Shown here: positions 10,162 to 31,052 of the stretch, in pieces | Position numbering within the stretch: position 1 is the stretch's first letter | Layout of the letters: each line of letters begins with the position of its first letter | IMG/VR virus record: IMGVR_UViG_3300027861_000010 | Source of the DNA: a virus | DNA: 64,000 bases | Direction: 5' to 3' (one strand) | Made by a program: the position numbers and the translations under genes | The notes under the pieces: model-generated | Seen by the model: the letters and a program-made list of their open reading frames with translations, nothing else | Database searches by the model: none | What the model was told of the DNA's origin: nothing

Positions 10162-11271
10162 GTGACCACGGACGAGATCCACCTGAATCCGGAACAAGCC
10201 CTGGATGTTGGCCTTTGGGCTGATTTCCCAGGCACGATTGACCATTTGGTCGAGAAGTGTGCAGCACCTGCCCGGGATCTGCGTCAGGCCGTGTCGTCGA
10301 TTTATACCAAATCTGACATAGGTGTTTACTGGAATCCGACGTACGAGAAGGCCGGTTTGTACGTTCGACCTGAGTTGAACGAGGAGGAATTCGATTGGTG
10401 CCTAAACGCAATAATCGAAAAGGTCGGAGCCGACCATGTCAAGACTGAGCCGCTGACAAGCGACGACTTGCAGGATTGGTGGGTCAAAGTTGCTTACTCA
10501 CCAACGCTTCGACGGATAGCTGAAGCTCTTCAGTTCTTACCTTCCAAAGACATTCCAGGTTTCGGTGGCCGACCCATTGCGTCCTCCATTGCTTCTGGAC
10601 TGTTGGGAGCCGGATTGGGTTACGGCGGCGGCTACCTGATGGACAAGATGACGCCGAAAGGACTTGGCGACGGTCGAATGCGATACTGGGGTGCAGCTTT
10701 AGGCGGGCTGGGCGGAGCAGGATTGGGAGCGACACCGGGGCTCGTCAACTGGCACGACGGACGTAAGTTCAACGACAACACACTTTGGTCTGGATTTCCC
10801 GAAGACGGTTGGGAACCCGATCTACCGCAGTCCGAACAGTACAAGAAAGCAGTTGACGCCTTTGTTACGAAGAATGCATTCCAGGTTCATCCGACAGGGC
10901 ATGCGTCTACAATAGGTGGACCTTCGTTTGCAGAAGCTCCGCTGATCCGAACAAATGAACTCGGTAATGTCCTTTGGGGCACCCGAGCAAACCCACAGAC
11001 AACTGCCATGACTATGGGAGCTGTTTATGGTGCGAACCAGATGCCTGATCCCCGATCACGCCCTGGAGTTGTGACTCCCCACCAGACTGGTTTACTCGGT
11101 ATGGCTATGGGAGCAGCCGGTGGCGGCATCAAAGGGTACGCCACAGGCTACGTTGTTGGGAAAGGTCTCGGTATACTGACAGGCATGCCTGAAGGTACAC
11201 AACAAAAACTGAGGCAAACTGGTGCCACATTGGGTATCATCAATTCGCTGGTACCCCGCTTGTTCAATTAA
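10162..11271 (+). CDS. Putative virion internal/ejection protein with glycine-zipper segments and K-x-A sites
   Basis: GLLGAGLGYGGG, AALGGLGGAGLGA, GLLGMAMGAAGGG; sites KCAA, KVAY, KKAV, KNAF; GGAGG RBS with GTG start. Confidence 0.55.
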   Translation: MTTDEIHLNPEQALDVGLWADFPGTIDHLVEKCAAPARDLRQAVSSIYTKSDIGVYWNPTYEKAGLYVRPELNEEEFDWCLNAIIEKVGADHVKTEPLTSDDLQDWWVKVAYSPTLRRIAEALQFLPSKDIPGFGGRPIASSIASGLLGAGLGYGGGYLMDKMTPKGLGDGRMRYWGAALGGLGGAGLGATPGLVNWHDGRKFNDNTLWSGFPEDGWEPDLPQSEQYKKAVDAFVTKNAFQVHPTGHASTIGGPSFAEAPLIRTNELGNVLWGTRANPQTTAMTMGAVYGANQMPDPRSRPGVVTPHQTGLLGMAMGAAGGGIKGYATGYVVGKGLGILTGMPEGTQQKLRQTGATLGIINSLVPRLFN

Positions 11272-11284
11272 GAGGAACACTTAG

Positions 11285-11734
11285 ATGACAATTTACGACG
11301 ACTTGAAGGCCGGGATCGACAAGATCATCGCCGACTACAAAGCTGCCAATGCCGATGGTAAGCTTTCGTTCTCTGAAATCTTTACGCTGGTCGGCAATGC
11401 GATTGCAACTTTCGTCCAGCTGATTGAAAATTTCGGAAGCGGCACTGGAGCCGAAAAGAAAGCTGCTGTGTTGGCGGCGATTGACCAGTTGTTCGACGAA
11501 GTGATCATTCCGATCGACATCAAAGGGATTCCGAACATGCTGGAGGGTATCGTTGATAAGGCCCTCAAGCAGTTGGTCCTGACGTTGGCCGATGGTTGGG
11601 TCGATTCGATCGTTAACATTTTCAACAAGACCGGTTGGGGATCGCCAGGTGGCCAACCTGCCGGAGACCCAGAAAACCCACAAGGTGCCAGCCCTGGCAT
11701 TCCAGGCTCGCCCCCAGGATTTGAAGCCTACTAA
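11285..11734 (+). CDS. Hypothetical helical protein with Pro/Gly tail
   Basis: GAGG RBS; amphipathic helices; GAEKKAAVL. Confidence 0.55.
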   Translation: MTIYDDLKAGIDKIIADYKAANADGKLSFSEIFTLVGNAIATFVQLIENFGSGTGAEKKAAVLAAIDQLFDEVIIPIDIKGIPNMLEGIVDKALKQLVLTLADGWVDSIVNIFNKTGWGSPGGQPAGDPENPQGASPGIPGSPPGFEAY

Positions 11735-11744
11735 GGTTAGGTTC

Positions 11745-11758
11745 AAAATCCGGATTTT
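11745..11758. repeat. Dispersed 14-bp palindrome, perfect copy AAAATCCGGATTTT
   Basis: Perfect inverted repeat, intergenic, abutting the RBS of the next gene. Confidence 0.8.
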
Positions 11759-11769
11759 AGGAGACTCTC

Positions 11770-12168: not shown

Positions 12169-12178
12169 GAGAGCAGGG

Positions 12179-12565
12179 ATGCATCCACGAGAAGCGTTCA
12201 AAATTGGTTTTTTGGCCAGATGTGTCGAGCAGGGTCTCTCTCCTGAGGATACTCGTGCTTTGGCTAAGTCCGCTTCGGACTGTTTTGAGAAGGCGGGATT
12301 CTCCGGCTTCAAAGATGTACTCGACACCGCTAAAGGTATCGGGTACCCAGCATTAGCTGCGGCAGCGGCTGCTCCGATCGCTCTCGGCGGCGGGGCGGCA
12401 TACTTTGCCAATAAAGCAACAGACACCGATGCGACGGATATTGAGGAGATCAAGCAGAAAGAGCTGGTCGATACTTACCGTCGCATGGCTGATCAGTTGC
12501 GTCGACAACGCAAAATGCGAGATTACAAAGCAGAACGAAAGCGGACAGGCCAAGTGTTCCTGTAA
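12179..12565 (+). CDS. Putative processed virion protein with single hydrophobic segment
   Basis: AFKIGFLARCVEQG leader, KSAS and EKAG sites, ALAAAAAAPIALGGGAAYF segment, basic coiled tail; start placed at ATG 12179. Confidence 0.55.
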   Translation: MHPREAFKIGFLARCVEQGLSPEDTRALAKSASDCFEKAGFSGFKDVLDTAKGIGYPALAAAAAAPIALGGGAAYFANKATDTDATDIEEIKQKELVDTYRRMADQLRRQRKMRDYKAERKRTGQVFL

Positions 12566-12574
12566 GGAAAAGGC

Positions 12575-12955
12575 ATGTCAAATAGCTTGGTGAAGTTCAC
12601 CAGCCGGAAGGATGGAAATGGTCGTGGCGAATTATTCTGGGGAAGGGCGGACATTGATGGTCTACCGTTTCGTGGCCACAACCCTCCGTCCATGCGGCAG
12701 GATGAGTTTGAAGAACGAGTCGTTCGAGTCGCGGACCCTAAGAACGGGACGTTCTACACGGGTGACGACGAGGAGAATGCAGCTTTTCTGAAAGTCATGG
12801 ATGGTATCACCAACAGCTGGTACCACATGATCTTCATTGAGCGTTGGCGAGAAGAAGGCGACAAACATCATTACGTTTATGTGGAGTGGGTAGAGTTCTT
12901 CCTTGAGGATGGGAAGCCGACACCTTACGCCCCACCAAGTTCAACAGGGATGTGA
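12575..12955 (+). CDS. Hypothetical protein
   Basis: AAGG RBS; 126-aa ORF coupled to neighbours. Confidence 0.6.
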   Translation: MSNSLVKFTSRKDGNGRGELFWGRADIDGLPFRGHNPPSMRQDEFEERVVRVADPKNGTFYTGDDEENAAFLKVMDGITNSWYHMIFIERWREEGDKHHYVYVEWVEFFLEDGKPTPYAPPSSTGM

Positions 12956-13848
12956 TCATGGATCAGAAAACAGCTGAAGAGTTGCTCCAACAAGTGCGAG
13001 CAGCCGCGGAAGAGAAACAGGCCGAGACTGGTTACTCCGGCCTGACCGGTATGTTGTCTAGCATTGGCAAAAGCCAGCCGGACTACGATAACCTGGCTAC
13101 GGCTGTTCGATCCCAGGCAAACTCGAAGATGCAGCAAGGAGCCATGAGCAACGTCATCAAGGCGATGCTTTTGGCTGGCGGAGCTGGTGCTGGCCTTCGA
13201 GGGCTGACAGGTCTTCAACGCATGTTTTCTGGCCAATCTAAGCCGGTATCCAGTCGGACAGTGGACATGCCTGTGGCGTATCCGGTTTCTCCTGAAGAAG
13301 AAGAAGAGAAGACTGCGGAGATCGGTAACTCGAAAGCCACTGCAAACTACGGGTTGAACTGGTACATCCCGTCCATGGTGTTGGGAGCACCGCTGGCTGC
13401 TTACGGGGGCTGGAAAGGCGTCGATGCTATTCTGGATACACAGCGTCGAAAGAAGACCGAATCCGACCTTGATGATGCGAAGAAAAAGTACCAACAAGCT
13501 TTGTTGGGCTCCTACAAGATGTCGGCGGATGAGCAGTCACCAGAAGACGTGCTCGACGCTGTGTTCGACGAACATTACAGCAAGTCCGCTGAAGAAGAAG
13601 GATTCATCGGCGGACTCATCAATCGTTACGCTCCCAATCTTCCCGGCATCAGTCAAGGCTTGGCAGCAGCCTACGCCATTCCGGCCACGGTAGGTGGCTA
13701 CGCTGTTGTTAATTCAATCATGAAGAAGAAGAGCAAGCGAGCTTTGCTTCAGAAAGCCATGCGTGAACGGGCTCGACGACAAGCTCAATCGCAACCTGCA
13801 GAGCTGTATGCAATTCCGCATCCTAAGGAAGAAGAGCAAGAGGTTTAA
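12952..13848 (+). CDS. Putative virion polyprotein with three K-x-A-delimited hydrophobic modules
   Basis: KQAE..MLLAGGAGAGLRGL; KTAE..MVLGAPLAAYGGW; KSAE..GLAAAYAIPATVGGYAVV; each followed by basic residues. Confidence 0.55.
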   Translation: MIMDQKTAEELLQQVRAAAEEKQAETGYSGLTGMLSSIGKSQPDYDNLATAVRSQANSKMQQGAMSNVIKAMLLAGGAGAGLRGLTGLQRMFSGQSKPVSSRTVDMPVAYPVSPEEEEEKTAEIGNSKATANYGLNWYIPSMVLGAPLAAYGGWKGVDAILDTQRRKKTESDLDDAKKKYQQALLGSYKMSADEQSPEDVLDAVFDEHYSKSAEEEGFIGGLINRYAPNLPGISQGLAAAYAIPATVGGYAVVNSIMKKKSKRALLQKAMRERARRQAQSQPAELYAIPHPKEEEQEV

Positions 13849-13854
13849 CAAAGC

Positions 13855-16800
13855 ATGGAACCGCTCACGCCAAATCTGCTTGAGCCTTCGACTCCATCTT
13901 TGCTGTCCTCGGCTCCTATCTCTCCACCAAGTCCTCTGCCTGCTCAGCAGCCAGAGGATGATTTTCGTGAATTCGGTGATACCGACAAGACGCGGTCGAG
14001 CATTTACCAACGAGTGCTCCAGGCGGCTCAGTCAATTGAGCCAATTACCAATGAGCGTCACACTCTGCGATTGACCGGGGTCGACTATCAAGACCCCGAT
14101 CGCGTCAGTAAGCGAGATCAGAAAGCCGCTATCCTGGGCGGGTTAAGTCGAGGCCGGAGGCTCCGAGGAACTTGGGAGCTGATGGATAACGCCACAGGTC
14201 AGGTGCTGGATCAGAAGAAGTCCGTATTGATGACCGTGCCTCACATGACGGAACGAGGTACCTTTATCAACAAAGGGACTGAGTACACGTTGAAGAACCA
14301 GCAACGATTGCTTCCAGGAGTGTATACGCGAGTCCGTGACAACGGTGAGATTGAGTCCCACGCCAATATCATGCCCGGCAAGGGAGTTTCGCACCGTTAT
14401 TTCCTTGACCCAGAGAAGGGTGTATTCAAGATCCGATTGGGTCAAGGCACCGTCGGACTAATGCCACTGCTCAAGGCAATGGGAGCTAAACCGGGGCAGC
14501 TTAAAGAAGCCTGGGGCCGGGACCTTTTTGCGTCAAACTACAACGCAGACGACGCCACAGAGTATAAGAAACTCAAGCAGAAGTTTCTTACAAAGAAGGA
14601 ACTCGAAGGCGAAGAGAACGAACAACGGGAAGCGTTGGTCAACAAGTTTGCCAGCATGGAGATGGATCCGCAGGTCACCAGCCGGACGCTGGGCAAGCCT
14701 CATCAAGGGCTGACACTGGACGCTGTCCTGGATATTACGAAGAAGTTGGTTGCGGTCTCTAAGAATGAGGCCGAGCCAGATGATCGAGACTCACTGACGT
14801 TCCAACAGTTTGTCGGGCCGGAAGATTTGTTCGCTGAGCGAATCAAGCGGGACAAGGGTGGCCTGCGTCGAAATCTGTTGTGGAAGATGTCTGGTAAAGG
14901 CAATCTAAAAGGGATGCCGTCCTCGGCTCTCAATAAACAACTGATGGCCGCGTTGATGACTTCAGGTCTGGGTCAGGCGATCGAAGAGATCAATCCTGCT
15001 GAACTTTATGACAAGTCGACGGCAGTTAGTCGTTTAGGGGAGGGCGGCATTCCTTCAACAGATGCGATCCCGAAAGAAGCTCGGAGTGTCCAACCAAGCA
15101 TGCTGGGCTACATCGACCCAGTGCGAACGCCAGAGTCCGGCAAGGTGGGTGTAGACACTTACTTGGCTCGAGGTGCTCGTAAGGGAAAGGACGGAAAACT
15201 CTACTCACAGTTCCGCGACGTAAAGACAGGGAAACTGCTTTACAAGTCGCCGCAGGATGTGGCGGATATGACCATTGCCTTCCCAGGCAGTATGGATCAA
15301 CGCAGCAAACGAGTTGCAGCCATGCGTAACGGGAAGATGACGTACGTGCCGAAGGATGAAGTTGATCTGGTGTTGCCTTCAATGGAGGAGGCATTTAATC
15401 CGTTGTCCAACATCATTCCTATGAAGAGTCAGGTGAAAGGGCAACGGTTGGTGATGGCGTCTCGAATGACGACGCAAGCCTTGCCGATCGTGGACGCCGA
15501 AGCTCCGTTGGTACAGTCAGCAATTCCGGACACAGATGGCAACCAAAGTTACGAAGAACTGTACTCAAACAATATGGGAGCGTTGCGGGCTCCCCAGGGT
15601 GGTGTTGTCAAAAGTGTTGATGACGACGGGATCACAGTTCGATACGAAGACGGCACCGAGGAAACTCACGATCTGTATCAGAACTTCCCGTTCAACCGAA
15701 AGACGTTCATTCACCAAACTGCAAACGTAAAGCCCGGTGATCAGTTTAAGCCAGATCAGTTGCTGGCCTATTCCAATTACACAGACAAAGGTGGAGCAAC
15801 AGCTCTCGGTAGGAACGCCAGAACCGCTTACATTGCCTGGCAGGGAAAGAACTTTGAAGACGCTGTGGTTGTCTCAGAAAGCTTTGCTCGGAAAATGTCT
15901 TCTGAGCACATGTATCAACACGACTTGGAGGTCGATGATAAGACGAAGGTTGGAAAGAAGCAGTTCATCCAACAGTTCCCAGGTAAGTTCGACAAAGCGA
16001 CACTCGCTAAGCTCGACGAGAACGGAGTCATCAAACCTGGAACTGTCGTGAACTATGGTGATCCTTTGATTCTCGGGGTTACACAGCGAGAAGCGGCCCA
16101 CAACAAGGTTCACAAGAAAGGTCAATCGGGGTTTAACGATGCAACAGTCACTTGGAATCATCACGACGCTGGCACCATTACCGATGTGGTTATGGGCAAA
16201 AAAGGGCCGACTGTCGTTGTTAAAGCATCCTCCCCAACCCAGACCGGCGACAAGCTATCAGGCCGTTACGGTGACAAAGGAGTCATTGCTGACATCATCC
16301 CAGACGGTGAAATGCCGCATAACGGTGATGGTCAGCCCTTTGAAGTGTTACTCAATCCGCTCGGAGTAATCACTCGAACCAATCCGGCTCAGATGGCTGA
16401 GTTACTTCTTGGCAAGATTGCGGCCAAACGCGGCAAGCCGATCAAAGTGCAGGACTTTGACTCCCAGAAGGACATGGCTGCCTGGGTCATGGAGGAACTG
16501 GGCCGGGAAGGCCTATCCGATCTCGAAGATGTCCTCGATCCGTCCAAGGATCAGAAGGTCAAAGGAATCGCTACGGGCAACCGGTTCTTTATGAAGCTGC
16601 ACCACACAGCTGAGTCCAAGGGACAAAGCCGCGGCGGCGGGTCTTACACGATGGAGGACACACCGGCTAAGGGAGGGTCAGAGGGTTCCAAGCGTGTCGG
16701 CATGTTGGATACCAACGCACTGTTGTCTCACGGAGCTACGGCGACTCTGCAAGACGTCAGCTCTGTACGTGGACAGAAGAATGACGAGTACTGGATGCAG

Positions 16801-18309
16801 TTCATGGCCGGGTACAACCCGAAGGCTGCGAAAGTTCCGTTGGTGTACCGGAAGTTTGTCGATCAGTTGAGGGCCGCAGGTGTCAATGTGACCAAACAGG
16901 GTACCCAGACCAACATCATGGCCCTGACGGACAAAGATATCGACGAAATGGCTGGAGATCGTAAGCTGACCTCCGCCGAAGGTGTTGATTGGGGTGAGTC
17001 TCTTAAGGAGATTCCAGGTGGTTTGTTCGATAAGGCCAAGACTGGAGGTCATGGCGGCAACAAATGGTCGTACATGCAGCTGCATGAGCCCTTGCCTAAC
17101 CCTGTAATGGAGGAACCGCTTCGGCGACTCCTCGGACTCACGAAAAAGGACTTCAATGCCGTCATTTCAGGCGAAAAGCCGTTGGGATCGCACGGAGCAG
17201 GTCCTGGAGCCCTGAAAAAGGCTCTGGAGTCGATGAATGTTGATGCAGAGATCAAGAAAACCCGAAATATCATCCAAGCTGGGCGAGCATCGGAGCGGGA
17301 TGCCGCAGTAAAGAAGCTGGGCTACCTAAAATCAGCCAAAAAGCTCGGATTGAAGCCTGAAGACTATGTTTTGAGTAAAGTTCCTGTCCTGCCGCCGATG
17401 TTTCGGCCTGTCAGCATGATGAGCAACGATATGCCGCTCATCAATGACGCGAACTTTCTTTACAAAGAGCTTTTCGAGGCTAATTCCAACCTGAAAGCAA
17501 TACAGAAGGAGCTCGGCAACGACGCGTCGGGGCAAGAGCGACTCGCAACGTACAATGCCTTCAAGGCAGTGACAGGTTTGGGCGATCCGATCCATCAGAA
17601 GACCCGAGACAAGAACGTCAAAGGTATTTTGAAGACAGTGTTCGGCTCGAGCCCCAAGTTTGGCACGCTGCAACGTAAATTGATCTCCACAACGGTCGAT
17701 AATGTCGGTCGAGCGGTGATCACACCAAATCCTGATCTCGATATGGATTCTGTTGGCCTGCCAGAGGACAAAGCGTTCAAGGCGTACGACAAGTTCATCA
17801 CCAGGCGACTGGTGCGACAAGGAATGTCACTTCGAGCAGCTCGTAACGAAGTTGCAAATAAATCGAAGCTGGCTCGGAAACTTCTGTTGGAGGAAATGGA
17901 TGAACGACCGGTCTATATCAGTCGGGCTCCAGTTCTTCACAAGTTCGGTATCATGGCTATGAAGCCTCGATTAACCAAAGGTAGCACCTTGCAGGTGAGC
18001 CCTTTGATTGTGAAAGGTTTCAACGCTGACTTCGACGGCGATGCCATGAATTACAACGTCCCAAGTACGGAGAAGGCTCGTAAGGAAGCGATCGAGCGAC
18101 TTTTGCCTTCCCGTAACTTGTTCAGTCTGTCAGACTTCAAGTCTGTGATGCATGCTCCAGCTAACGAGTATGTTGGTGGTTTGTTTCATGCAACGAAGTC
18201 AAAAAGTGACCGTCCCAAGAAGATTTTCCGAACAGCCGCGGACGCGAGGAAAGCGTACGAGCGAGGTGATATCTCTATCGACGATCGCGTTCAAATCTTA
18301 GAATCGTAA
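13855..18309 (+). CDS. Phage multisubunit DNA-directed RNA polymerase: beta fused to N-terminal half of beta-prime
   Basis: beta motifs PHMTERGTFINKG, RTPESGKVG, NFEDAV, GDKLSGRYGDKGVI, LLNPLG, MKLHH; beta-prime motifs VPVLPPMFRP, GRAVITP, SRAPVLH, catalytic NADFDGD at 18022-18042. Confidence 0.95.
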   Translation: MEPLTPNLLEPSTPSLLSSAPISPPSPLPAQQPEDDFREFGDTDKTRSSIYQRVLQAAQSIEPITNERHTLRLTGVDYQDPDRVSKRDQKAAILGGLSRGRRLRGTWELMDNATGQVLDQKKSVLMTVPHMTERGTFINKGTEYTLKNQQRLLPGVYTRVRDNGEIESHANIMPGKGVSHRYFLDPEKGVFKIRLGQGTVGLMPLLKAMGAKPGQLKEAWGRDLFASNYNADDATEYKKLKQKFLTKKELEGEENEQREALVNKFASMEMDPQVTSRTLGKPHQGLTLDAVLDITKKLVAVSKNEAEPDDRDSLTFQQFVGPEDLFAERIKRDKGGLRRNLLWKMSGKGNLKGMPSSALNKQLMAALMTSGLGQAIEEINPAELYDKSTAVSRLGEGGIPSTDAIPKEARSVQPSMLGYIDPVRTPESGKVGVDTYLARGARKGKDGKLYSQFRDVKTGKLLYKSPQDVADMTIAFPGSMDQRSKRVAAMRNGKMTYVPKDEVDLVLPSMEEAFNPLSNIIPMKSQVKGQRLVMASRMTTQALPIVDAEAPLVQSAIPDTDGNQSYEELYSNNMGALRAPQGGVVKSVDDDGITVRYEDGTEETHDLYQNFPFNRKTFIHQTANVKPGDQFKPDQLLAYSNYTDKGGATALGRNARTAYIAWQGKNFEDAVVVSESFARKMSSEHMYQHDLEVDDKTKVGKKQFIQQFPGKFDKATLAKLDENGVIKPGTVVNYGDPLILGVTQREAAHNKVHKKGQSGFNDATVTWNHHDAGTITDVVMGKKGPTVVVKASSPTQTGDKLSGRYGDKGVIADIIPDGEMPHNGDGQPFEVLLNPLGVITRTNPAQMAELLLGKIAAKRGKPIKVQDFDSQKDMAAWVMEELGREGLSDLEDVLDPSKDQKVKGIATGNRFFMKLHHTAESKGQSRGGGSYTMEDTPAKGGSEGSKRVGMLDTNALLSHGATATLQDVSSVRGQKNDEYWMQFMAGYNPKAAKVPLVYRKFVDQLRAAGVNVTKQGTQTNIMALTDKDIDEMAGDRKLTSAEGVDWGESLKEIPGGLFDKAKTGGHGGNKWSYMQLHEPLPNPVMEEPLRRLLGLTKKDFNAVISGEKPLGSHGAGPGALKKALESMNVDAEIKKTRNIIQAGRASERDAAVKKLGYLKSAKKLGLKPEDYVLSKVPVLPPMFRPVSMMSNDMPLINDANFLYKELFEANSNLKAIQKELGNDASGQERLATYNAFKAVTGLGDPIHQKTRDKNVKGILKTVFGSSPKFGTLQRKLISTTVDNVGRAVITPNPDLDMDSVGLPEDKAFKAYDKFITRRLVRQGMSLRAARNEVANKSKLARKLLLEEMDERPVYISRAPVLHKFGIMAMKPRLTKGSTLQVSPLIVKGFNADFDGDAMNYNVPSTEKARKEAIERLLPSRNLFSLSDFKSVMHAPANEYVGGLFHATKSKSDRPKKIFRTAADARKAYERGDISIDDRVQILES

Positions 18310-18339: not shown

Positions 18340-19029
18340 ATGGGCATCAACCCAGAATTGCTGAAGCTGGCTCGCCATAATGTCGGTCAGCAAAAAGTTG
18401 CTTTCGTTCCCGCTGGTGATCCTACAATGGGTGGGGATCCTGCTGCTGGGGGTGCTCCAATGGACCCTGCCGCAGCTGGCGGTGCTCCGCCGATGGATCC
18501 AATGGCCGCAGGCGGAGCTCCACCGATGGACCCGGCTGCTGGCGGCGGTGATCCGCTTGCCGGACTTCAACCGATGATCCAACAAGCTGTTCAGCAGGCT
18601 ATGGCCGCTGGCGGCGGCGGTGGCGGCGGTGCTCCCGGCGAGGCAGCCATCAAGCCAAAGATCGACATCAACGTCGAAGTCATGCAGATGAAGAAACTGT
18701 TGGCCAAGCTGTGCGATGCGATGGGTGTTCAGATTCCAGCCGCTGAAATGGTTGCGACACCTGAAGACCTTAATCAAATGGCAGCAGGCGGTCCCGGGGC
18801 CGCGGCAGCCACTCCGGACGGCGGTGGCGGCATGCCTGGTGGAGATCCGGCAGCTGGCGGCGGAGCCATTCCGCCGATCGAACCGATGAAGGCTGCGGAA
18901 GACTGGGAAGCAGGCGTAGCGTTCACTCCGCCTGCGGCTTACGACTTCCAGAATTCACACTCGACCACAAAGAATACCGCTAACATGGCTGCGGCTATGC
19001 TCCTGCGGAATCGCACAAAGGTCTCTTAA
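18340..19029 (+). CDS. Gly/Pro/Met low-complexity protein with DPAA(A)GGAPPM repeats
   Basis: About four degenerate ~10-aa repeats at ~18430-18560; K-x-A sites KLAR, KVAF, KAAE. Confidence 0.65.
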   Translation: MGINPELLKLARHNVGQQKVAFVPAGDPTMGGDPAAGGAPMDPAAAGGAPPMDPMAAGGAPPMDPAAGGGDPLAGLQPMIQQAVQQAMAAGGGGGGGAPGEAAIKPKIDINVEVMQMKKLLAKLCDAMGVQIPAAEMVATPEDLNQMAAGGPGAAAATPDGGGGMPGGDPAAGGGAIPPIEPMKAAEDWEAGVAFTPPAAYDFQNSHSTTKNTANMAAAMLLRNRTKVS

Positions 19030-22900: not shown

Positions 22901-23886
22901 CAAGCAGCAAAGGACTCTCAAAGGCCCTTGGTCCTGCTGCTTTTGTGTTGGAAGGTGGGCTTATCGGGAAAGACATTTACGATAAGACACAAGAAGGGCA
23001 ATCGTTTGGTCGGGCCTGGAAAGAGCAGGCGGATGAGCACGGAGCTAATACTCGAGGCCTGTTTACTGACTGGGATGGCGGTGCTCACGAGATATATCAG
23101 AAACCTATTGATGTGGCGATGCATGTGCTGAGCCCGGTAGCTACTGTGCAGGAAGGAACACAATTGGCCGCCGAAGTCGGCGGCGGTCTCGGAGATATGG
23201 CCACAGGTGCGTGGAACTTCGCGTCGGATGCTGAGGGACGTAACCGGGCAGCAGCAAAAGCCGAAACCGAACAAATGATGGCTGATCGCCAGGAGGCTCT
23301 ATCAGGAGAGCAGGACCAGATCCGGTCAACGCTGGAAAATAATAAAACAATCTCGCCGATGCAGAAAGAAGAGTTACGCCAACGCTCTGCCGAGTTAGAC
23401 TTACGGAAGCAGGAAGCCCAGTTGAAAGCTGACGCGGCCACGGACGAAACAGAAGGCTGGCAGCTCGGTAAGCAACACACATTTGGTACTGGTGGACATT
23501 ACTTTCGTGACGCAATGGCCGGGACAGGGAACCGGCTTTCAGCGAAAATCGAAAAATTACAGGCTAACCAGGATAGTCTGACACCAGAACAACAGTTCGA
23601 TTTGAAGAATATGATTCGCAGGCGTGACGAGATGAAGAGGCTGGGAGACTTTTACAGTCGCGAAGTTGGCTATTTTGGTGAAGGAGATTTCACTAAAATT
23701 ATGCGAATCCGTGTGCGAAACATAAAAGTCCAGTCAGTGGAACTCGCCCGGCGACTACGCGAGCCTGCTGTAAAAGGGAACCCTCAGCTTACAATGGAGT
23801 TGGAAGCTGAGATGCGACATCAACAAACCCGCCTTGCAAACATGAAAAGCTGGGCTAGACAGGCCAAGAATCAGAAGGTCAAGTAG
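19999..23886 (+). CDS. RNA polymerase beta-prime C-terminal subunit with ~630-aa appended domain
   Basis: TTVGQLL, SGSRG, bridge helix GLTPEEYWAGTYGARRG..T..GFL, trigger loop GLQAAQALSEP..SAKHSGG; similarity ends near aa 610; K660-Q-A precedes an unrelated extension. Confidence 0.9.
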   Translation: MLNTTVGQLLVNEALPDELRDYNRVLDNKGMHALLQQVAREHPDKYREVSFKLNQVGQRSAQDQGGMSFSARHLKRSPYANETRSRIQAQLGKVLDDDSLTDEQRAAKVVRIVGKEMEPQQKAILEEAIKDKNPLAMQVLSGSRGKPMNLASLLGADMLYSDHRDEVIPIPVLRSYSEGLTPEEYWAGTYGARRGIIATKFATQEAGFLSKQLNQAGHRLVVMDEEGEDDDRRGMVVDTDDMDNEGSLLARDMGPYKRNTPLTPKILKHLKRLGKNRILIRSPLVGGSPEGGVYARDVGIRETGKLPGRGEQVGLQAAQALSEPISQGQLSAKHSGGVAGQEKAVGGFQAINQLIQVPKKMQGGAAHSEKDGIVQRVEKAPAGGHYVTINDKQHYVGEGFDVKVKKGDEIEAGDLLSNGIPNPALIVKYKGVGEGRRYFVNEFRKAMAGGGMQGHRRNIELLARGLINHVKMTDETDEHAPDDIIPYSTLEHTYKPRGDSQLLAPKKAVGQYLERPVLHYTIGTKIRPSMLKDFEEFGITDLPVHKEPPPFQPHMVRGMYTLQHDPDWMTQMYGSGLKKSLLNSTARGATSDARGTSFVSSLAEGSDFGEVADRAVIQPKPSYELPKIEPPAPEEEKLPAPAAPPTPSFFGGRFKTGMHKQAEEPKVPTAPKTPATQSLAAPLAPTPAPTGAGNMSSNIMPSSGPTAQDFMPAPGQLGSQENPNGIMPPDQLQQYAQNAQQQNDRGMRMVGVDPMSDPFRTQTTAATPPPSTPAQARADQVQQQRSYGSGNTQTDMRTLFAQAPSRTLAGNSLARKMRRGDARTMGIQAARQRAQQIQNEQAARRNLYQQAHPQRAYDPIPGPSVAGPLPAEQSQSPVPATGEMGYGDVAGTLLAGQHAWTQGGRVWNAAAKGEMLTHGSQLGKSLNPGAQKGVQTVNQLARTAAHKTPGLGRFVAATSDDAARAAGASSKGLSKALGPAAFVLEGGLIGKDIYDKTQEGQSFGRAWKEQADEHGANTRGLFTDWDGGAHEIYQKPIDVAMHVLSPVATVQEGTQLAAEVGGGLGDMATGAWNFASDAEGRNRAAAKAETEQMMADRQEALSGEQDQIRSTLENNKTISPMQKEELRQRSAELDLRKQEAQLKADAATDETEGWQLGKQHTFGTGGHYFRDAMAGTGNRLSAKIEKLQANQDSLTPEQQFDLKNMIRRRDEMKRLGDFYSREVGYFGEGDFTKIMRIRVRNIKVQSVELARRLREPAVKGNPQLTMELEAEMRHQQTRLANMKSWARQAKNQKVK
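20821..20834. repeat. Palindrome copy AAAAACCGGATTTT (1 mismatch)
   Basis: Inside the beta-prime C gene; flanked by T and A. Confidence 0.6.
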
Positions 23887-23896
23887 GGTGCTTGTA

Positions 23897-24229: not shown

Positions 24230-24246
24230 GCCGGGAGCTGCTGCTC

Positions 24247-26772
24247 ATGGAAGGAACCATGCATACTTCAATTATTACAAAATCTGCCAACCTTGGCGGC
24301 AGTGGTGGCGAGACGGAATTTGAACAAGCATTTTCCAGCCTCGCATACGCTTACCTGCGGGACAAAGCTCCTCGATTGCTCGACCACATGGTCGGCTTTC
24401 AGCTTGTCGACCGCAACGAAGACAACACCAAAGCCATGGGGATCTTCGGATTCCAGATCGATAAGCAGTGGCTTTATGCTCCCGTCTTCTTCCTGAACGG
24501 TGACCTCAAGGGTCATGAGTTGTTGTACATGAAGAACAACGACTCCTTCGTTCCGATGAAGGAGAACTGGATCAACTACATCATGAGCCGCAAGCCTCAT
24601 GTATTGGGCGAGTCCTCTTCAGATCAACTGCGGGATCTTGGAGGCATCTACCCTGATATCCGGTCGCTTTCGATACCGCCTTCGGTTGGCGGCGGTAAGC
24701 GAGCATCGGATCAGGAGTGGCTGAAAGACGCTATGCCGATGCTGGCTGCGTTCAAAGTCAAAGCTGCCAGCTCGCTTTTCCCTGGAGCTGGAAACCGCAA
24801 ACTTAACCAGGCAGCTGTCGTCGAAGCTCCGCTTACTGCGGCATTGACCAAGCACGCTCAAAATCTGGATTTTAACCAGATCATGCCGACCAGCTTGGAA
24901 TTGATGAAGCAGGCACACGACATCGCTGAGATGTATCCGACCATTAAGCAGGCGATGCAGAAGTTCTACGGCGTCGATTGTTTCAGCCGATGGGGCCGAG
25001 AGTATCGCGATAACACGGCCAAAGAGGCTGGCAACATCATGCCAGAGAAGCGGGCTGCCGCTCGGCCATACATGCCTGGCAATTTGCTGATTCCTACGGA
25101 GCGACCGGCTGGTCCCGTCGACCACGAAAAATCCGGCAAGCTCCGGATGTATGTTTACGAAGAAGTCATTGTCAGCAAGGCTCCGGAGTTGGACGAGGAC
25201 GAGCGTGAGCGTCTACAGAAAGACACCGTCCTGATTAAGGATCACCGCGAAGGGGAAGAAGTCAGCAAGGCCTACAATACTCAGGTCGAAGCCAAACTGA
25301 CGAATCCCTCAGAGACCGCCCTCTACCGTGTGTTGGTTAAGCCGGGCGAGTTCAAAAAGATGCTGATCGCCATGAACGGCTCCAGCAATCGAGGTCGTGA
25401 AGCCATGGCGACAGTTGTCCGCCTGGAAGATAACGGCGACGGATCGAACAAGGCCTGGTTGAATACGCACCCGACCAATGTTTTCGCTGATCAGATCAGT
25501 GAACGTGATGAGTGGGAAGAGTGGTTCAACGGATTGGGCGATTCAAGTTCGCTGACTGAAGGTGCTGAGTACATCGCAGTCGCAGAGAACGGTTCAACCT
25601 CGGTGCCATTTACCGTGCAGTCCAGTTACGGCGATGATCGTTATCGTGTTGATTTCCGTACCGACATTAACTGGAACGAGACTCGACCAGCCACGATGCC
25701 TCGTGTTGCTGCTAACCGTTTCGATCAGTACGGTGACGACCAGGACCGGGCTCCGTCGCCGTACGGGGCAATGCTTTACATCAACAAGGAAGGCAAGAAG
25801 GGCACCAAGATTCGAGCGATCGGTGGCGAACTTCGCATTCCAGAGGACTTCAAGTTCCTTAAACTCAAAAGCCCACAGAAGTCGAAACCTGGCGAGCTCA
25901 TGTGTTGTAGCGATTACGAGACTCGTAGCGACATGCCGCCTATCAATCTCGGAAAGATCGACGACATCCAGTTGCTCTTCCACGAGAAGACAGCTCGATT
26001 GAAGGTTTTCAACAACGGCACTGACGTGTATATCTCGTCGCCGTTGGGTGAGCAGTGTCTATCTAAGAAGTCTGCTCTACTGAACCTGGTCGGTACGCAT
26101 GGCTTTCGTGAAAAGGTTGCCCGGGAGATTCTGACTTACGCCGAACAGAAAGGTAACGCGGTTTACCGTGCGTCTTATGCTCCCGGCTATGGGCCTGAAA
26201 AACAAGCTGCTCCGAACAGAAGTATGCTGGCTGGCGGGCCAAGTGCTCCGATGTACGATGACTTTGCCAACGAGCAGAGTGTGGAAGAATACGGTCCTCG
26301 AACGGCTGTACCAACTCAGTACGGTAGCGAGCAGGCTTACCGTGTCGACAGCATGACAGCAGATCAGACCGATCCGGCAGTATGGGACAATTGGCAGAAC
26401 TATTCTGCTGAGGATTTCCAAAGCAGCATGCAGGTTGCTCAGCAGGCCGGTGCCGAAGGTCAGAAAGAGGTTTTCGACACTTCGATGATCTCTGGAATGC
26501 TCAAGTCCGTTCGACAGGATTCGCTTGTTGAGCGACATCTTGGTAGTCTGGTCGAAGCGTTGGACGCTCTTGGGCGTTTGATCATGAACTTCTACTGGCA
26601 CCAGGAGGAGTTTGAAGATCGTTACGGTAAGAGCGATTTACCTGAACTGGAAGACAGCTTGCGGAATGCATTCGAGTCCCTGGGTGACATCACTCTGTTC
26701 CTCAAAGAGAAAACTATCGAATCGCCGTTCGACGAAGGCGATGTCGATCTCGAAGAAACTGCAAGGAATTAA
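24247..26772 (+). CDS. Large putative virion head-associated protein with many K-x-A sites
   Basis: KSAN, KRAS, KHAQ, KRAA, KTAR, KQAA; globular-looking N-domain (PVFFLNGDLKG) and helical C-domain. Confidence 0.6.
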   Translation: MEGTMHTSIITKSANLGGSGGETEFEQAFSSLAYAYLRDKAPRLLDHMVGFQLVDRNEDNTKAMGIFGFQIDKQWLYAPVFFLNGDLKGHELLYMKNNDSFVPMKENWINYIMSRKPHVLGESSSDQLRDLGGIYPDIRSLSIPPSVGGGKRASDQEWLKDAMPMLAAFKVKAASSLFPGAGNRKLNQAAVVEAPLTAALTKHAQNLDFNQIMPTSLELMKQAHDIAEMYPTIKQAMQKFYGVDCFSRWGREYRDNTAKEAGNIMPEKRAAARPYMPGNLLIPTERPAGPVDHEKSGKLRMYVYEEVIVSKAPELDEDERERLQKDTVLIKDHREGEEVSKAYNTQVEAKLTNPSETALYRVLVKPGEFKKMLIAMNGSSNRGREAMATVVRLEDNGDGSNKAWLNTHPTNVFADQISERDEWEEWFNGLGDSSSLTEGAEYIAVAENGSTSVPFTVQSSYGDDRYRVDFRTDINWNETRPATMPRVAANRFDQYGDDQDRAPSPYGAMLYINKEGKKGTKIRAIGGELRIPEDFKFLKLKSPQKSKPGELMCCSDYETRSDMPPINLGKIDDIQLLFHEKTARLKVFNNGTDVYISSPLGEQCLSKKSALLNLVGTHGFREKVAREILTYAEQKGNAVYRASYAPGYGPEKQAAPNRSMLAGGPSAPMYDDFANEQSVEEYGPRTAVPTQYGSEQAYRVDSMTADQTDPAVWDNWQNYSAEDFQSSMQVAQQAGAEGQKEVFDTSMISGMLKSVRQDSLVERHLGSLVEALDALGRLIMNFYWHQEEFEDRYGKSDLPELEDSLRNAFESLGDITLFLKEKTIESPFDEGDVDLEETARN
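24860..24873. repeat. Palindrome copy AAAATCTGGATTTT (1 mismatch)
   Basis: Reverse complement of the 36347 copy; 18 of 19 bp shared including flanks. Confidence 0.7.
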
Positions 26773-26775
26773 ACT

Positions 26776-27417: not shown

Positions 27418-27426
27418 GAGAGACCC

Positions 27427-28452
27427 TTGAAGGTTTACAGGGACGTAAAATTAGCTGATCCTTTCTTAAGGCCAAACTGGCGACACGAGCGTGTTGTCAA
27501 GATGCTTGATAGTGTGCCGCCGGAACGTGTCAAGCGAACTGACGACGAGTGGATTGCTGGTTACAAGAAGTTCTTGCAGCAGTGGAGCAAAAGCGAAGCT
27601 AACCGGGACAAGCTCCTGTACGACAACCCTGGGTTGTACTTCGCTTACGTCATGTTCGATCGAATGTTCACGGAGCCTGAGCTTCGACTTATGATCGAAG
27701 CTCGGCTACTATCTGGCCTGACATACGCGGATATCGCAGAAGAATGTAAGACGATTCCGGAAACCATACAGTGGTATGAGCGGCTGTTCTTCAATGTGAT
27801 TGAGTTTTTACCCAACCACGATTGGATAATGAAGCACGTTCTCTTGCCATCCTCCGACCGTTTCGTGCAAGATGATACCGCGGATGATGACGAAGAAGTC
27901 GCCTTTGCCCCTAAACCTTCCAATGAAGTCGTCCGACCTCATCTTGATATGACGTTGAAGTTCTTCGCTTATTATGGTGGTCCAATGGTTTGCGACCAGA
28001 TGATCAGCGGATTCCGGCGAGATAAGCGAGTCACCTCGCATGAAGATCTTCCAGAGTATTTCCACGAACAATTCATGTCTCAAGTAACGCGTCGAAGTGC
28101 TCAGTCGTCAGGGCAATTCGAGATCAACAAGTACAACGTGATGGAGTTGTTCGCGACTCACACTAGAATTATCGAGATTCAACGATCGGCTGAGAGTGCG
28201 GAAGATCGTCACAACGAGTTTGAGAAACACGTCAATGCGATGTTGACTGAACTGCCATGGACTGTCGGCCTCGAAAGCAAGAAACTGTATGAAGGTTCTG
28301 AAATCGGGAAGTTCGACGCAGGTGCGTCTGAGCTGAACGAGGAAGAACTGATGCTATTCGGGTCGGGCAGAGAGCCGGAGTCGTTGGATGATGTTGCCGG
28401 TCTGACCATATCCAGCCGGAAGGAGCCGGAGAATAATGCAAAGTCTAAGTAA
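27427..28452 (+). CDS. Hypothetical protein
   Basis: GGAG RBS, TTG start, 341 aa. Confidence 0.65.
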   Translation: MKVYRDVKLADPFLRPNWRHERVVKMLDSVPPERVKRTDDEWIAGYKKFLQQWSKSEANRDKLLYDNPGLYFAYVMFDRMFTEPELRLMIEARLLSGLTYADIAEECKTIPETIQWYERLFFNVIEFLPNHDWIMKHVLLPSSDRFVQDDTADDDEEVAFAPKPSNEVVRPHLDMTLKFFAYYGGPMVCDQMISGFRRDKRVTSHEDLPEYFHEQFMSQVTRRSAQSSGQFEINKYNVMELFATHTRIIEIQRSAESAEDRHNEFEKHVNAMLTELPWTVGLESKKLYEGSEIGKFDAGASELNEEELMLFGSGREPESLDDVAGLTISSRKEPENNAKSK

Positions 28453-29827
28453 ATCTGATGAGCAGTTGCTGCTCGATGGCGTCAAGCAGGCGGTGGCCTT
28501 GGTGGATAACCAAGATCTATCGCCAAATGCTGCGATGCATAAGGTGGCTGAGGAGTTACAGTACTCCCCAGGCTTCCTCAAGGCAGCATGCAACGCGTTC
28601 AACAACGGGCGACAACTTGCCCAGTGGAACGCCAATGACTCCGTGTTGGATAAGTTGGCCAGCTTCCCGCTCGCCAATTACGACGAGATCCACGATACGA
28701 TGTGGGGTACGACACAGGAGAAGGTCGCATCTGTTTCATCGTTCGGCCCTAAGTTCGACACGTACGAAGAGCAATCTCGGCGGGAACTGTTGAACATGGA
28801 CCTGTCGAGCTTTGAGAAAGCCGCATCAGATGCTCCTGAAGTGCATCCGTTGGTGGCGGACGAACACGCTGATATGCGGTCCAAGCGAGCCTACTCTGAT
28901 TTTGAGTTCGCTCGGAGGGAGCTGGAAGAAGCTCGCCGCGAGAAGTCGTCCAATGACGACCGACTCAACCTGAAGATGCACTTGCTGGAGAATTACTTCC
29001 GCAAGTTTGCTTATGATCGTTTGCCGTTTGCCCAAGTAGAGCACGGCGTAGCGACTTATTTCGGGGAGCCCGGTAAAGCTCTGATGGGCTACATCGCCGA
29101 GCGATTTCCTCGAGAGAAGCGAGCTTCGGACCACCAATCAACTTGGGATGGTTTTCAGCAGCCGGTGAATCGACGACAAGAACCCTACGCTCTGATCGCT
29201 GATTGCATCAAGCAAGCCAAGGATCTGTATGCGGCCACAGTTCAACTCGCTGCCGCTGAGGAAAAGTTCGCCAAAGCAAAGGAAGGTGTTGCCCCTTTTT
29301 CACAACCCCGATCCCCAGAGTCGAATGGGAGCCAGCCTACCCTGACTCCATCGTTGATTGCTGATGGATCGGGGGAAAAGCAGGCCAACATTTTTGGAGG
29401 CATCGCTGGAGGCATGGGGCTTGGAGCTGCTAGGTCCATGACCGAAGGACTGGGCAGCGACCCGGAAGCTCGGATCGAGAAGCAGATTTCTGAACTGGAA
29501 AGCCCCGACCATCTGAACGAGATGCGAAAGATTCGAGCTCAGACCGTATTGACTCAGCTGATGAGCGATCCTGACAGCCCGCTCAGCGGCTACGATCCGG
29601 AAGAAGTGCTGACCGCATACAATGAAATGGTGCAACTGTCGCCCCGATTAGCAGATCAACCTGCGGCCATTGCTCCGCTCCTCAACAAGCGGTTGATGGG
29701 TAACACTGAGCCTTTCGAGGTTGGCGAGCAAGTCAAACTCGAGAAGGGACTCAAGGACGTACAGGCCCCACAGTCAGCACCCAAACCAGTGGACTTGATG
29801 AAAAATGAAGCCAGTATCATTAGCTGA
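28436..29827 (+). CDS. Putative virion head protein with K-x-A sites and a Gly-rich hydrophobic segment
   Basis: KLAS, KVAS, KAAS, KRAY, KFAY, KRAS, KFAK, KQAN-IFGGIAGGMGLGAA. Confidence 0.6.
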   Translation: MQSLSKSDEQLLLDGVKQAVALVDNQDLSPNAAMHKVAEELQYSPGFLKAACNAFNNGRQLAQWNANDSVLDKLASFPLANYDEIHDTMWGTTQEKVASVSSFGPKFDTYEEQSRRELLNMDLSSFEKAASDAPEVHPLVADEHADMRSKRAYSDFEFARRELEEARREKSSNDDRLNLKMHLLENYFRKFAYDRLPFAQVEHGVATYFGEPGKALMGYIAERFPREKRASDHQSTWDGFQQPVNRRQEPYALIADCIKQAKDLYAATVQLAAAEEKFAKAKEGVAPFSQPRSPESNGSQPTLTPSLIADGSGEKQANIFGGIAGGMGLGAARSMTEGLGSDPEARIEKQISELESPDHLNEMRKIRAQTVLTQLMSDPDSPLSGYDPEEVLTAYNEMVQLSPRLADQPAAIAPLLNKRLMGNTEPFEVGEQVKLEKGLKDVQAPQSAPKPVDLMKNEASIIS

Positions 29828-31052
29828 TATCACGTACGAGCAAGGACTCCAGTTGATTGTTCTGCGAAAGCAGGCTCTGGATTCTGGCAAAGTACGTCGC
29901 ATGCCCAAAGAGGCTCTGGACAGCAATTACCCGCTGCACGCTATCGGTACGCAAGTGCTGGAGAAGGTTGCAGAGGGTGGTTTTATGGACGGCATCGGTA
30001 AGTCGTTATCGAGCGGACTCAGCGGAGCCAAGGACTGGTTCGGTAAGTTGGATCCGACTGTGAAGTCCACGCTGATCGGCGGCGGACTTGGAGCAGGCAC
30101 CGGCTTGGCAGCATCCGCCATGAATCGGGATCGGCATTGGCTCCGTAACGCCTTGATGGGCGGTGTAGCCGGTAGTGCAATCGGTGGCGGTATTGGTGTT
30201 GCCCGTAACCCGGGTGCTGCTGACAAGATTCGAGACAAGCTCACTGGCTTCGCTGAGAGCTTCAATAACAAGGACGCCCCGAAACCAACAGCCGAAGCAG
30301 CACCTGGCGGCGGATCACCAACACCTGCCCCACTTGAAGACAAATCCGTTGCAGGTCGAGCTCGGCAACTGGTCGATGCAGATCCTGAAACTTCTGCCAG
30401 CCAGATTGATTCCCTGCGAACTGACGCTGAGAGTTGGGCTCCGGAAATTGTTCACGGAACTGGAGCGGCTGGAACGGTCGGAGCCACAGGTTACGCCCTG
30501 CGTAAGTTGCAGCAGATGAAAGGGTATGACCCTGACGCGATGCTGACTCACCTGGGTCAAATGGCTGACGATACTCCAAACCTTCCTCGTAAGTTGGATT
30601 CGATTGGTATTCGTACCATGGATCAAACTGACGAGGCGTTGAGAGGGCTGGGTCCAATCGCTACTCAGCCGGGTCGAGATGCAGCATTGTGGCGGCAATT
30701 TCGAGCCAACCCGCAAGACCCAGCTCTGCGGAAGCAGATTGAAAAACTGTTGGCTGCTCGGGGAATCAAACGTAATTTGATGGGTGGTGTCGCGGCAAAG
30801 GGTTCACCTGCACTGAAGAATTTCCTTGCAGGCAGCGGTGATGATGCCCTTGAAACCGTCCTGAGCAAAGGCTTCAGCGGCAGACGACCTGTTCGAGGCG
30901 GAGCTGCTGGTCTACTTGTCGGAGCTAGCGGGTTAGGGCTCAAGGGGCTATGGGACAGCTACAAATCACAGCAAGCTCACCGCACGGACGCTAAGAATGT
31001 TCTTGACGCCGTGCGAGCTGAACTAGCAAAACGAAATGCCGCAGGCGGGTAA
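29805..31052 (+). CDS. Putative ejection protein with glycine-zipper segments
   Basis: EKVA site, then LIGGGLGAGTGLAA, LMGGVAGSAIGGGIGVA, GGAAGLLVGASGLGL; no Cys. Confidence 0.55.
   Translation: MKPVSLADITYEQGLQLIVLRKQALDSGKVRRMPKEALDSNYPLHAIGTQVLEKVAEGGFMDGIGKSLSSGLSGAKDWFGKLDPTVKSTLIGGGLGAGTGLAASAMNRDRHWLRNALMGGVAGSAIGGGIGVARNPGAADKIRDKLTGFAESFNNKDAPKPTAEAAPGGGSPTPAPLEDKSVAGRARQLVDADPETSASQIDSLRTDAESWAPEIVHGTGAAGTVGATGYALRKLQQMKGYDPDAMLTHLGQMADDTPNLPRKLDSIGIRTMDQTDEALRGLGPIATQPGRDAALWRQFRANPQDPALRKQIEKLLAARGIKRNLMGGVAAKGSPALKNFLAGSGDDALETVLSKGFSGRRPVRGGAAGLLVGASGLGLKGLWDSYKSQQAHRTDAKNVLDAVRAELAKRNAAGG

Follow-up and report, generated by a model that had tools for sequence, protein, structure and literature searches.

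Why would a set of glycine-rich, membrane-type proteins keep their cysteines on one side of a short sequence motif? This question is raised by a stretch of 64,000 nucleotides from the virus record IMGVR_UViG_3300027861_000010 of IMG/VR (hereafter the window, meaning the stretch at its full length), where five such proteins, which we label A to E, are encoded between positions 10162 and 31052. An earlier reading of the letters alone (the sequence-only reading) took these proteins for precursors cut at K-x-A-type motifs (the proposed cuts are called sites below), noticed that their cysteines stand before the sites, and proposed that the mature fragments are under selection to be cysteine-free, as expected for proteins crossing an oxidising periplasm. 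Counting cysteines in homologues of all five families, with column permutation, has yielded a strong contrast: 540 among 57,670 residues before the sites (0.94%) and 42 among 112,812 after them (0.037%). The parts beyond the sites are thus far from carrying cysteine at the background rate, which is 0.85% in the window proteome (176 of 20,761 residues), and the selection proposed for them is borne out by this contrast together with a gap among rare variants that is specific to cysteine.

The source of the window is an uncultured jumbo phage of about 200 kilobases (kb). Its relatives are IMG/VR contigs of 150-230 kb; the long genes of the window all lie on the + strand, and among their products are a ribonucleotide reductase of class II and an RNA polymerase of bacterial type made of two chains.

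Cysteine on the two sides of the sites

The five proteins and their motifs are these:

10162-11271, + strand: protein A, 369 residues, with Cys33 and Cys80; KVA at residues 109-111
12179-12565, + strand: protein B, 128 residues, with Cys15 and Cys35; E-K-A-G at residues 37-40
12952-13848, + strand: protein C, 298 residues, no cysteine; motif K22-Q-A24
28436-29827, + strand: protein D, 463 residues, with Cys52 and Cys257; K-Q-A at residues 315-317, followed by NIFGG
29805-31052, + strand: protein E, 415 residues, no cysteine; motif K54-V-A56

As had been described, both cysteines of A and both of D lie upstream of the site, and the window copies of C and E have none. In B, too, both cysteines precede EKAG. 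Cys35 lies downstream of a second conserved motif, K30-S-A32, however, and counts as a pre-site residue provided that the cut is made at EKAG and not there. All six cysteines of the five proteins then precede the sites, with an exact P of 0.004 under uniform placement within each protein, for sites picked after the fact by a reader able to see the cysteines. The block from 10162 to 31052 has 16 cysteines in 6,893 residues (0.23%), and the genes at 34-10031 have 57 in 3,268 (1.7%); at the block rate, 2.6 cysteines are expected in the 1,125 post-site residues, and the probability of none is 0.075. Because the sites are post hoc and the whole block is poor in cysteine, the signal of the window alone is weak and only suggestive.

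The homologue sets comprise 120 relatives of A, 120 of D and 46 of E, 150 cluster representatives out of 758 matches for C, and 15 distinct relatives from related loci for B. After alignment to the window protein, the sequences of each set were divided at the end of the three-residue motif, behind the Ala of K-x-A or, in B, behind Gly40 of K38-A-G40. The counts were as follows:

Family A, 121 sequences: 255 cysteines in 13,656 residues before the site, 10 in 31,159 after
Family B, 16 sequences: 20 in 657 before, 0 in 1,535 after
Family C, 151 sequences: 11 in 3,157 before, 29 in 45,674 after
Family D, 121 sequences: 248 in 37,601 before, 3 in 17,950 after
Family E, 47 sequences: 6 in 2,599 before, 0 in 16,494 after

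Column permutation (100,000 shuffles) gives p values of 1e-5, 0.008, 0.004, 7e-5 and 7e-5 for A to E in this order, values that overstate independence, as the homologues are related and the columns are treated as independent. The pre-site cysteines are spread over many distinct columns (41, 4, 8, 32 and 4, in the same order), which argues for many separate gains. A second set for D, made of 66 locus-derived sequences reaching down to 24% identity, holds 114 cysteines among its 20,737 pre-site residues and none among the 11,636 post-site ones. At the position of E, upstream of the protease gene discussed below, diverse relatives have 58 open reading frames, 43 of them without cysteine; ten glycine-rich ones hold 13 cysteines, all within residues 5-28, and the remaining five cysteine-bearing frames are one protease fragment and four low-glycine frames resembling D.

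The gap is specific to cysteine. As a rare variant, cysteine is found in 2% of the post-site columns of A and in 0% of those of D and E; the corresponding figure for each of the other residue types, Trp, His and Tyr among them, is 4-35% in these three families. Before the sites, rare-variant cysteines occupy 25% of the columns in A, 9% in D and 7% in E, comparable to His or Tyr. The post-site columns of E are the most variable of all, with 8.5 residue types per column, and yet they have no cysteine. The comparison of homologues supports the view that the post-site parts are under strong, cysteine-specific selection.

Some of the individual cysteines deserve mention. A Cys33-Cys80 pair in A was considered and ruled out, for the two residues vary independently among homologues, as neutral residues would. 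Cys15 of B (12221-12223) is invariant (16/16), a second pre-site cysteine being found in 2/16 sequences, and Cys52 of D (28589-28591) is present in 115/121. Both Cys15 and Cys52 lie within pieces proposed as discarded and may play a role during assembly.

As to what these proteins are, scans of A to E and their neighbours against Pfam and PHROGs gave no family match for A, B or D, and for C a T3SS_ExsE match only, at chance level. E matches Pfam Gly-zipper_YMGG (PF13441) with 21.1 bits and an expectation value of 2.5e-4, below the curated cut-off of 28.9 bits, and its homologue P0267 carries the same domain in precomputed data. The glycine-zipper character of the five is taken from motif counts; in A, hydrophobic glycine-rich stretches at residues 139-157 and 177-195 are accompanied by many [GAS]xxxGxxx[GAS] motifs. 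A metagenome scan found 13 loci, and a search for related loci with E alone as query found none. The ATG start of B at 12179 agrees with the starts of its homologues. Three A homologues (P0009, P0010 and P0012), of 541-560 residues, have a precomputed Pfam PF18823 match in an N-terminal extension and may represent a fusion or a merged gene call.

Segments, borders and a candidate protease

Divided at the motifs, the five proteins give this map:

10162-10494, + strand: N-terminal cysteine-permitted region of A, residues 1-111
10495-11268, + strand: cysteine-suppressed glycine-zipper part of A, residues 112-369
10852-10878, + strand: internal segment of A between two K-x-A motifs, residues 231-239
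12179-12298, + strand: N-terminal region of B, residues 1-40, with the invariant Cys15 and the K38-A-G40 site
12299-12562, + strand: cysteine-free part of B, with a hydrophobic segment (58-76) and a basic C-terminal helix
12952-13023, + strand: short N-terminal segment of C, residues 1-24, ending K22-Q-A24; 10 cysteines in 2,588 residues (0.39%)
13024-13845, + strand: downstream part of C, with cysteine-suppressed residues 25-191 and 214-298
13525-13590, + strand: internal cysteine-permitted segment of C, residues 192-213, flanked by the conserved motifs K189-x-[A/S] and K211-x-A
28436-29386, + strand: long N-terminal cysteine-permitted region of D, residues 1-317, ending K315-Q-A317
29387-29824, + strand: cysteine-free C-terminal part of D, residues 318-463, beginning NIFGGIAGGMGLGAA
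29805-29972, + strand: N-terminal segment of E, residues 1-56, ending K54-V-A56
29973-31049, + strand: cysteine-free glycine-zipper part of E, residues 57-415

Most of the 42 post-site exceptions fall in short internal segments between K-x-A motifs, in families A and C. Homologues of A have 1 cysteine in 14,773 residues at positions 112-230, 6 in 1,105 at 231-239 and 3 in 15,281 at 240-369. In a refined alignment of C, the 30 cysteines beyond the first site divide into 6 in 28,742 residues (25-191), 21 in 3,156 (192-213) and 3 in 14,345 (214-298, all three in one truncated protein); the rate for residues 192-213, where the cysteines occupy 17 columns in 18 proteins, is thus 0.67%, and that of the two flanks 0.021%. 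Two homologues of C (P0392 and P0432) carry, as read directly from their sequences, a zinc-ribbon-like CxxC...CxxC insert between two K-x-A motifs. All three post-site cysteines of family D come from a single protein, P0240, where they sit in an insertion immediately beyond the site. It seems from these alignments that cysteine is tolerated only in parts that would be removed after translation and before packaging.

The borders are sharp. In A and E the last cysteine-bearing column stands 7 residues upstream of the site; the distance is 15 in D and 5 in B, where the column is that of Cys35 and the site follows residue 40. From the density of cysteine columns in A, the switch can be no further than about 10 residues from residue 104, and the motif ends at residue 111. 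The motif is also conserved: WVKVAYS is exact in 89/121 sequences of A, the next nine commonest variants all retaining K-[V/I/L]-A; in D, K-x-[A/S/G] is found in most listed rows of the 66 sequences, within a hypervariable and otherwise unalignable linker; in C and E the same type of motif ends at residues 24 and 56, with E-K-x-A aligned in the close relatives of C; and in B, K-x-[A/S/G] is aligned in most of the 16 sequences. Relative to what shuffling predicts, K-x-A is enriched 2.9- to 5.2-fold before the sites. In D, whose window copy has 12 such motifs, it is 4.0-fold before the site and 0.21-fold after, and in E 4.5-fold before and 0.26-fold after, a distribution that would be expected if long leaders were chopped up and the retained parts protected. 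A conserved border motif repeated in long propeptides, as in substrates of gp21-type proteases, is therefore present in A, C, D and E and mostly in B. The sites of A to E do not show the [L/I/A]-x-E motif with a cut after Glu: many residues can precede Lys (E, T, D, L, N and others), and there is no Glu near the site of A. If cleavage occurs, its specificity differs from that of known gp21-type proteases.

A candidate for the protease adjoins the predicted cargo genes within the head-assembly block, followed by a scaffold-like protein:

31036-32532, + strand: prohead protease candidate, with a gp21/assemblin fold over residues 7-244 and a helical C-terminal half
32580-33881, + strand: scaffold-like protein, acidic and of low complexity, with many K-x-A motifs, no cysteine and no family match

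The AlphaFold2 model of the former, built with 57 sequences, has a mean predicted local distance difference test score of 82.8. The top three Foldseek matches are T4 gp21 (5jbl; expectation value 4.6e-3, probability 1.00), and VIA-align superposes 149/164 residues on 5jbl with a Z score of 11.2 and a root-mean-square deviation of 3.2 A, at 9-11% sequence identity, the next unrelated match scoring 5.1 and the human cytomegalovirus protease 4.6. We found no Pfam or PHROG match for it, Pfam scans of eight homologues were likewise empty, and phmmer searches with it and the scaffold-like protein against PDB sequences returned nothing useful; ESM Atlas gave leads only, at 0.88-0.89, to prohead protease families. 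At least 203 relatives exist in IMG/VR. Invariant residues include H69, H97, H110, S173, C183, C186, C197 and C202, and from the model we consider the protein a candidate protease with the T4 gp21 fold. While residues 7-244 share the fold of T4 gp21, the invariant four-cysteine cluster (C183, C186, C197 and C202; the window copy has 13 cysteines in all) and the helical half of about 250 residues, confidently modelled and with no clear structural match, are extra here. The scaffold-like role of the next protein is inferred from its composition and its position after the protease.

Reach of the suppression

Two RNA polymerase chains and a capsid protein show how far the avoidance of cysteine extends:

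13855-18309, + strand: RNA polymerase chain 1, a fusion of beta with the N-terminal part of beta', cysteine-free
19999-23886, + strand: RNA polymerase chain 2, the C-terminal part of beta' with a long extension, cysteine-free
35022-35969, + strand: major capsid protein, not cysteine-suppressed, a contrast case

The sequence-only reading had presented the avoidance of cysteine as a property of the Gly-zipper proteins. This did not hold, since both polymerase chains and the Gly/Pro/Ala-rich repeat protein encoded between them (18340-19029; 1 cysteine in 2,604 residues over 11 homologues) show it equally. The two chains, with A, B and C directly upstream, have 0 cysteines in 2,779 residues together. 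Chain 1 (0 in 1,484 residues; Pfam Rpb2_6 at 4.7e-49 and Rpb1_2 at 6.3e-24) has 18/20 cysteine-free homologues, with 12 cysteines in 29,620 residues (0.04%). The only homologue with many cysteines (L017:290-6025) has 11, and they all fall in a 443-residue insertion with cysteine-free flanks. This insertion, at the point that corresponds to the junction of residues 1068 and 1069 of the window chain, starts with Cys, is followed by Ser and contains a LAGLIDADG endonuclease domain (expectation value 3e-24); it is therefore an intein, removed after translation. Chain 2 (0 in 1,295 residues; Pfam Rpb1_5 at 1.1e-19) is cysteine-free in 5/5 homologues (0 in 6,023 residues). Only its first ~610 residues match the beta' chain (606 residues) of Salmonella phage Arash, the remaining ~690 being an extension absent from Arash. 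Five related genomes have one RNA polymerase beta gene each.

Other proteins of the particle and its assembly behave differently. The capsid protein, which aligns with the gp226 frame of Arash, annotated as major capsid protein, at 28% identity over 310 residues (expectation value 2e-35), has 85 cysteines in 17,857 residues over 57 homologues (0.48%). In relatives, cysteine amounts to 1.0% in an 841-residue protein (24247-26772), 2.1% in the protease and 2.1% in the reductase. Since the polymerase and the 18340-19029 protein are suppressed and the capsid protein, the 841-residue protein and the protease are not, strict suppression marks, judging from the homologue counts, the predicted cargo set rather than the shell or particle proteins in general.

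Proposed processing and ejection, and the alternatives

We propose that A to E are made as precursors in the head-assembly gene block of this ~200 kb phage and are cleaved at K-x-[A/S/G], most likely by the gp21-fold protease. Each would lose an N-terminal piece, between 24 and 317 residues long, and A and C a short internal spacer as well; the retained glycine-zipper pieces would remain packaged as cargo beside the only RNA polymerase of the phage. At infection they would be expelled through the tail and would probably insert in the host envelope. Cargo threading unfolded through a narrow channel and an oxidising compartment could not afford disulfides or metal sites; cysteine would have been purged from all retained parts, and would drift freely in those living only in the reducing cytoplasm. 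We consider this chain of precursor cleavage, packaging, ejection and purging, taken whole, to be probably right, with ample room for doubt, and the link between the cysteine pattern and cleavage to be supported but unproven. The cysteine contrast with its sharp borders, the conserved motif and the protease fold are observations, whereas the cut itself, the packaging, the ejection, the insertion into membranes and the cause of the avoidance are inferred.

The logic of a leader that is later cut off has a precedent in the internal proteins of T4, where a leader targets cargo to the prohead and is then removed; the cleavage motif here is another one. In Salmonella phage SPN3US, gp245, a gp21-type protease, removes N-terminal propeptides of 20-24 or 111-254 residues, mapped by mass spectrometry, from head and ejection proteins, and the long propeptides are cut several times, their pieces leaving the head, according to the sections of PMC10052503 that describe them. 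The pieces proposed here, whose lengths are 24, 40, 56, 111 and 317 residues and the longer of which contain many additional motifs, resemble those of the SPN3US/phiKZ group, unlike the internal spacers of A and C, which are not reported in section 3.3 of that paper (PMC10052503).

The nearest cultured relative that we found is Salmonella phage Arash (OQ632216), a myovirus according to the abstract of its description. Its polymerase chain has 31% identity to ours over 96% of the query; it shares the fused beta/beta' chain and a protease homologue (hmmsearch expectation value 5e-54), and its gp220 is a distant match to residues 57-104 of D, with the K-x-A motifs aligned. Cysteine suppression looks looser in Arash, whose polymerase chains have 1 cysteine in 1,525 and 4 in 606 residues. 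Both chains are listed among the most-detected proteins of purified particles, in a preparation of 116 proteins that includes nucleotide enzymes and for which the authors allow for carry-over (PMC10585845). With profiles of A, B, C and E no match was obtained in 44 kb of Arash or in a stretch of SPN3US, and tblastn with A and C as queries was equally empty over 50,697 phage records.

Several points weigh against the proposed processing and ejection. Cleavage, packaging and ejection of A to E are, in this clade, read from genes alone, and the cysteine data set only an upstream limit to each border. To the relatedness of the homologues, noted with the p values, must be added the uncertainty of the linker alignments, the deletion of the motif in 2/16 sequences of B, and the moderate conservation of the internal motifs of A (K228-x-[AGS] in 65/121, K237-x-[AGS] in 94/121). 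SPN3US does not follow this distribution: in gp45, gp53, gp54, gp81 and gp225, which we checked, the mapped propeptides have 0 cysteines and the mature parts 7. Furthermore, three SPN3US polymerase subunits, taken to be of the virion set, carry 3-9 cysteines. SPN3US thus rules out the confinement of cysteine to propeptides as a general rule of giant phages and makes the rule lineage-specific, raising the question of how entry routes differ between lineages. Known gp21-type proteases cut after Glu, the SPN3US motif being A-x-E (PMC10052503), whereas the motif here is K-x-[A/S/G]. Finally, the particle proteome of Arash gives gp220 a sequence coverage of 95.77% (PMC10585845); if accurate, this figure means that the region homologous to the N-terminus of D is not removed in Arash.

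If cleavage and packaging are real, the periplasm need not be the reason for avoiding cysteine. The alternatives are unfolding and threading through portal and tail, or thiol cross-linking in the densely packed head over long periods in oxygenated water, and although we hold such a cause to be rather unlikely, it deserves serious attention. The polymerase would end up in the cytoplasm, and yet both of its chains are without cysteine. Methionine is enriched rather than avoided in A (3.9% after the site, 1.2% before), which argues for a constraint on thiol chemistry and not on oxidation in general. On the other hand, capsid, tail-region and other particle proteins sitting in the same water keep their cysteines, so that storage alone is insufficient, and nothing in our data separates passage through the tail from passage through the periplasm. 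The idea itself is not new, as cysteine avoidance and its periplasmic explanation are already published for N4-like ejection proteins (PMC3715699, PMC11445570). In a passage of their paper, Ceyssens et al. (2010) describe the N4-like virion polymerase as devoid of cysteine and propose passage through the tail and/or the periplasm (PMC3715699), an explanation found also in a passage on the N4-like ejection operon in PMC4837373. A 2024 study of phage DEV, in the part concerned, reports suppression across three ejection proteins, gp71-73, in 191 genomes, with 0.00075% cysteine in homologues of gp71, 0.0055% in those of gp72 and none in those of gp73, against 0.865% in the proteomes (PMC11445570). 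The periplasm is thus a published hypothesis and one of several candidate causes, beside tail passage and oxidation in the packed head.

The likeness to N4-like phages (N4 gp50-52, DEV gp71-73) is the suppression of cysteine in a virion RNA polymerase and its membrane-associated ejection partners, and the levels here are similar, at 0.037% in the post-site parts and 0.04% in the polymerase, far below the proteome. As in that cargo, A to E combine a post-site cysteine content that is close to zero across homologues with a location beside a cysteine-free polymerase. No sequence relationship to the N4 or DEV ejection proteins was found, A to D having no PHROG or Pfam match and no direct comparison having been made. 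The polymerase differs from the N4-like one in being a two-chain enzyme of bacterial type instead of a giant single subunit, in phages of ~200 kb. Another difference from the N4-like descriptions, as far as these passages go (PMC11445570, PMC3715699, PMC4837373), is that the cargo precursors here carry cysteine-permitted pieces that are apparently cut away.

Bacterial proteins exported unfolded offer an analogy only, as they concern cellular secretion systems and not a phage particle: cysteine is scarce in autotransporter passengers, type III substrates and flagellin, and this is explained by unfolded, disulfide-free export.

Could the proteins, on the contrary, be left uncut? A to E would then be two-part envelope proteins of the infected cell, serving for instance in lysis, exclusion or assembly, with cysteine tolerated in an N-terminal domain that faces the cytoplasm and avoided in the remainder, which would lie in the membrane or outside the cytoplasm. 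B does have the look of a small membrane protein that spans the bilayer once and has a charged tail, and the coverage of Arash gp220 would fit. The sequence-only reading had taken the cysteine pattern as independent support for cleavage; the pattern does add support, but alone it cannot tell a cut from a domain border. It is other evidence that makes uncut proteins improbable. The cysteine-permitted 22-residue segment of C shares an inter-membrane stretch with cysteine-free sequence, the switch falling at K-x-A, and membrane proteins with many segments would keep cytoplasmic loops, whereas the post-site part of E has no cysteine in any homologue. The enrichment of K-x-A before the sites and its depletion after them would be left unexplained, a polymerase that works in the cytoplasm is equally suppressed, and the genes sit in the head-assembly block beside the protease.

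That the contrast is a mere by-product of composition, in glycine-rich, low-complexity or membrane sequence (14-17% Gly after the sites of A and E) within a cysteine-poor block where the window alone gives no significant deficit, is very hard to believe, given that post-site columns take all 19 other residue types as rare variants, that the post-site part of D has only 7% Gly and 0/144 columns with cysteine, that 2,779 residues of an ordinary enzyme are equally devoid of it, and that cysteine is absent even though Gly codons are one step from Cys codons.

What is new in the processing and ejection proposed here is the contrast between discarded and retained parts, which doubles as a processing map drawn from sequence. 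In the open-access literature we found nothing linking cysteine avoidance to propeptides, a search that cannot show absence from print. It is tempting, if somewhat doubtful, to go further and see in the distribution of permitted cysteines an evolutionary footprint that maps both injected proteins and the cut points of their precursors. This joint claim would include a protease of the gp21 fold whose K-x-[A/S/G] specificity is new, processing in the manner of a polyprotein, with internal spacers discarded and small glycine-zipper membrane peptides released, and the injection of eight or more proteins, with the only RNA polymerase of the phage at their centre; the glycine-zipper pieces could form a conduit or an early compartment for the entry of DNA and polymerase. 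Were this joint claim true, cysteine counts across homologues would separate injected cargo from shell proteins and enzymes in uncultured phages, and would tell discarded from retained segments where no particle can be purified. The published rule for ejection proteins would extend from N4-like podophages to phages of ~200 kb with a virion polymerase of bacterial type, attention would be drawn to a prohead protease with an unusual motif, and five membrane-type proteins would be nominated as an entry apparatus.

Among the remaining genes of the window, the 841-residue protein at 24247-26772 found no match by tblastn against cultured phages; its identification as a portal was a guess from size, backed by no tool, and has been dropped. 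The presumed tail region encodes a protein of 1,618 residues without any cysteine (57703-62559), which may be tape-measure-like or a further injected protein. The product of 36860-38488, a gene standing after the head genes and before the presumed tail genes, contains a family 2 glycosyltransferase domain (expectation value 7.5e-12) and 12 cysteines.

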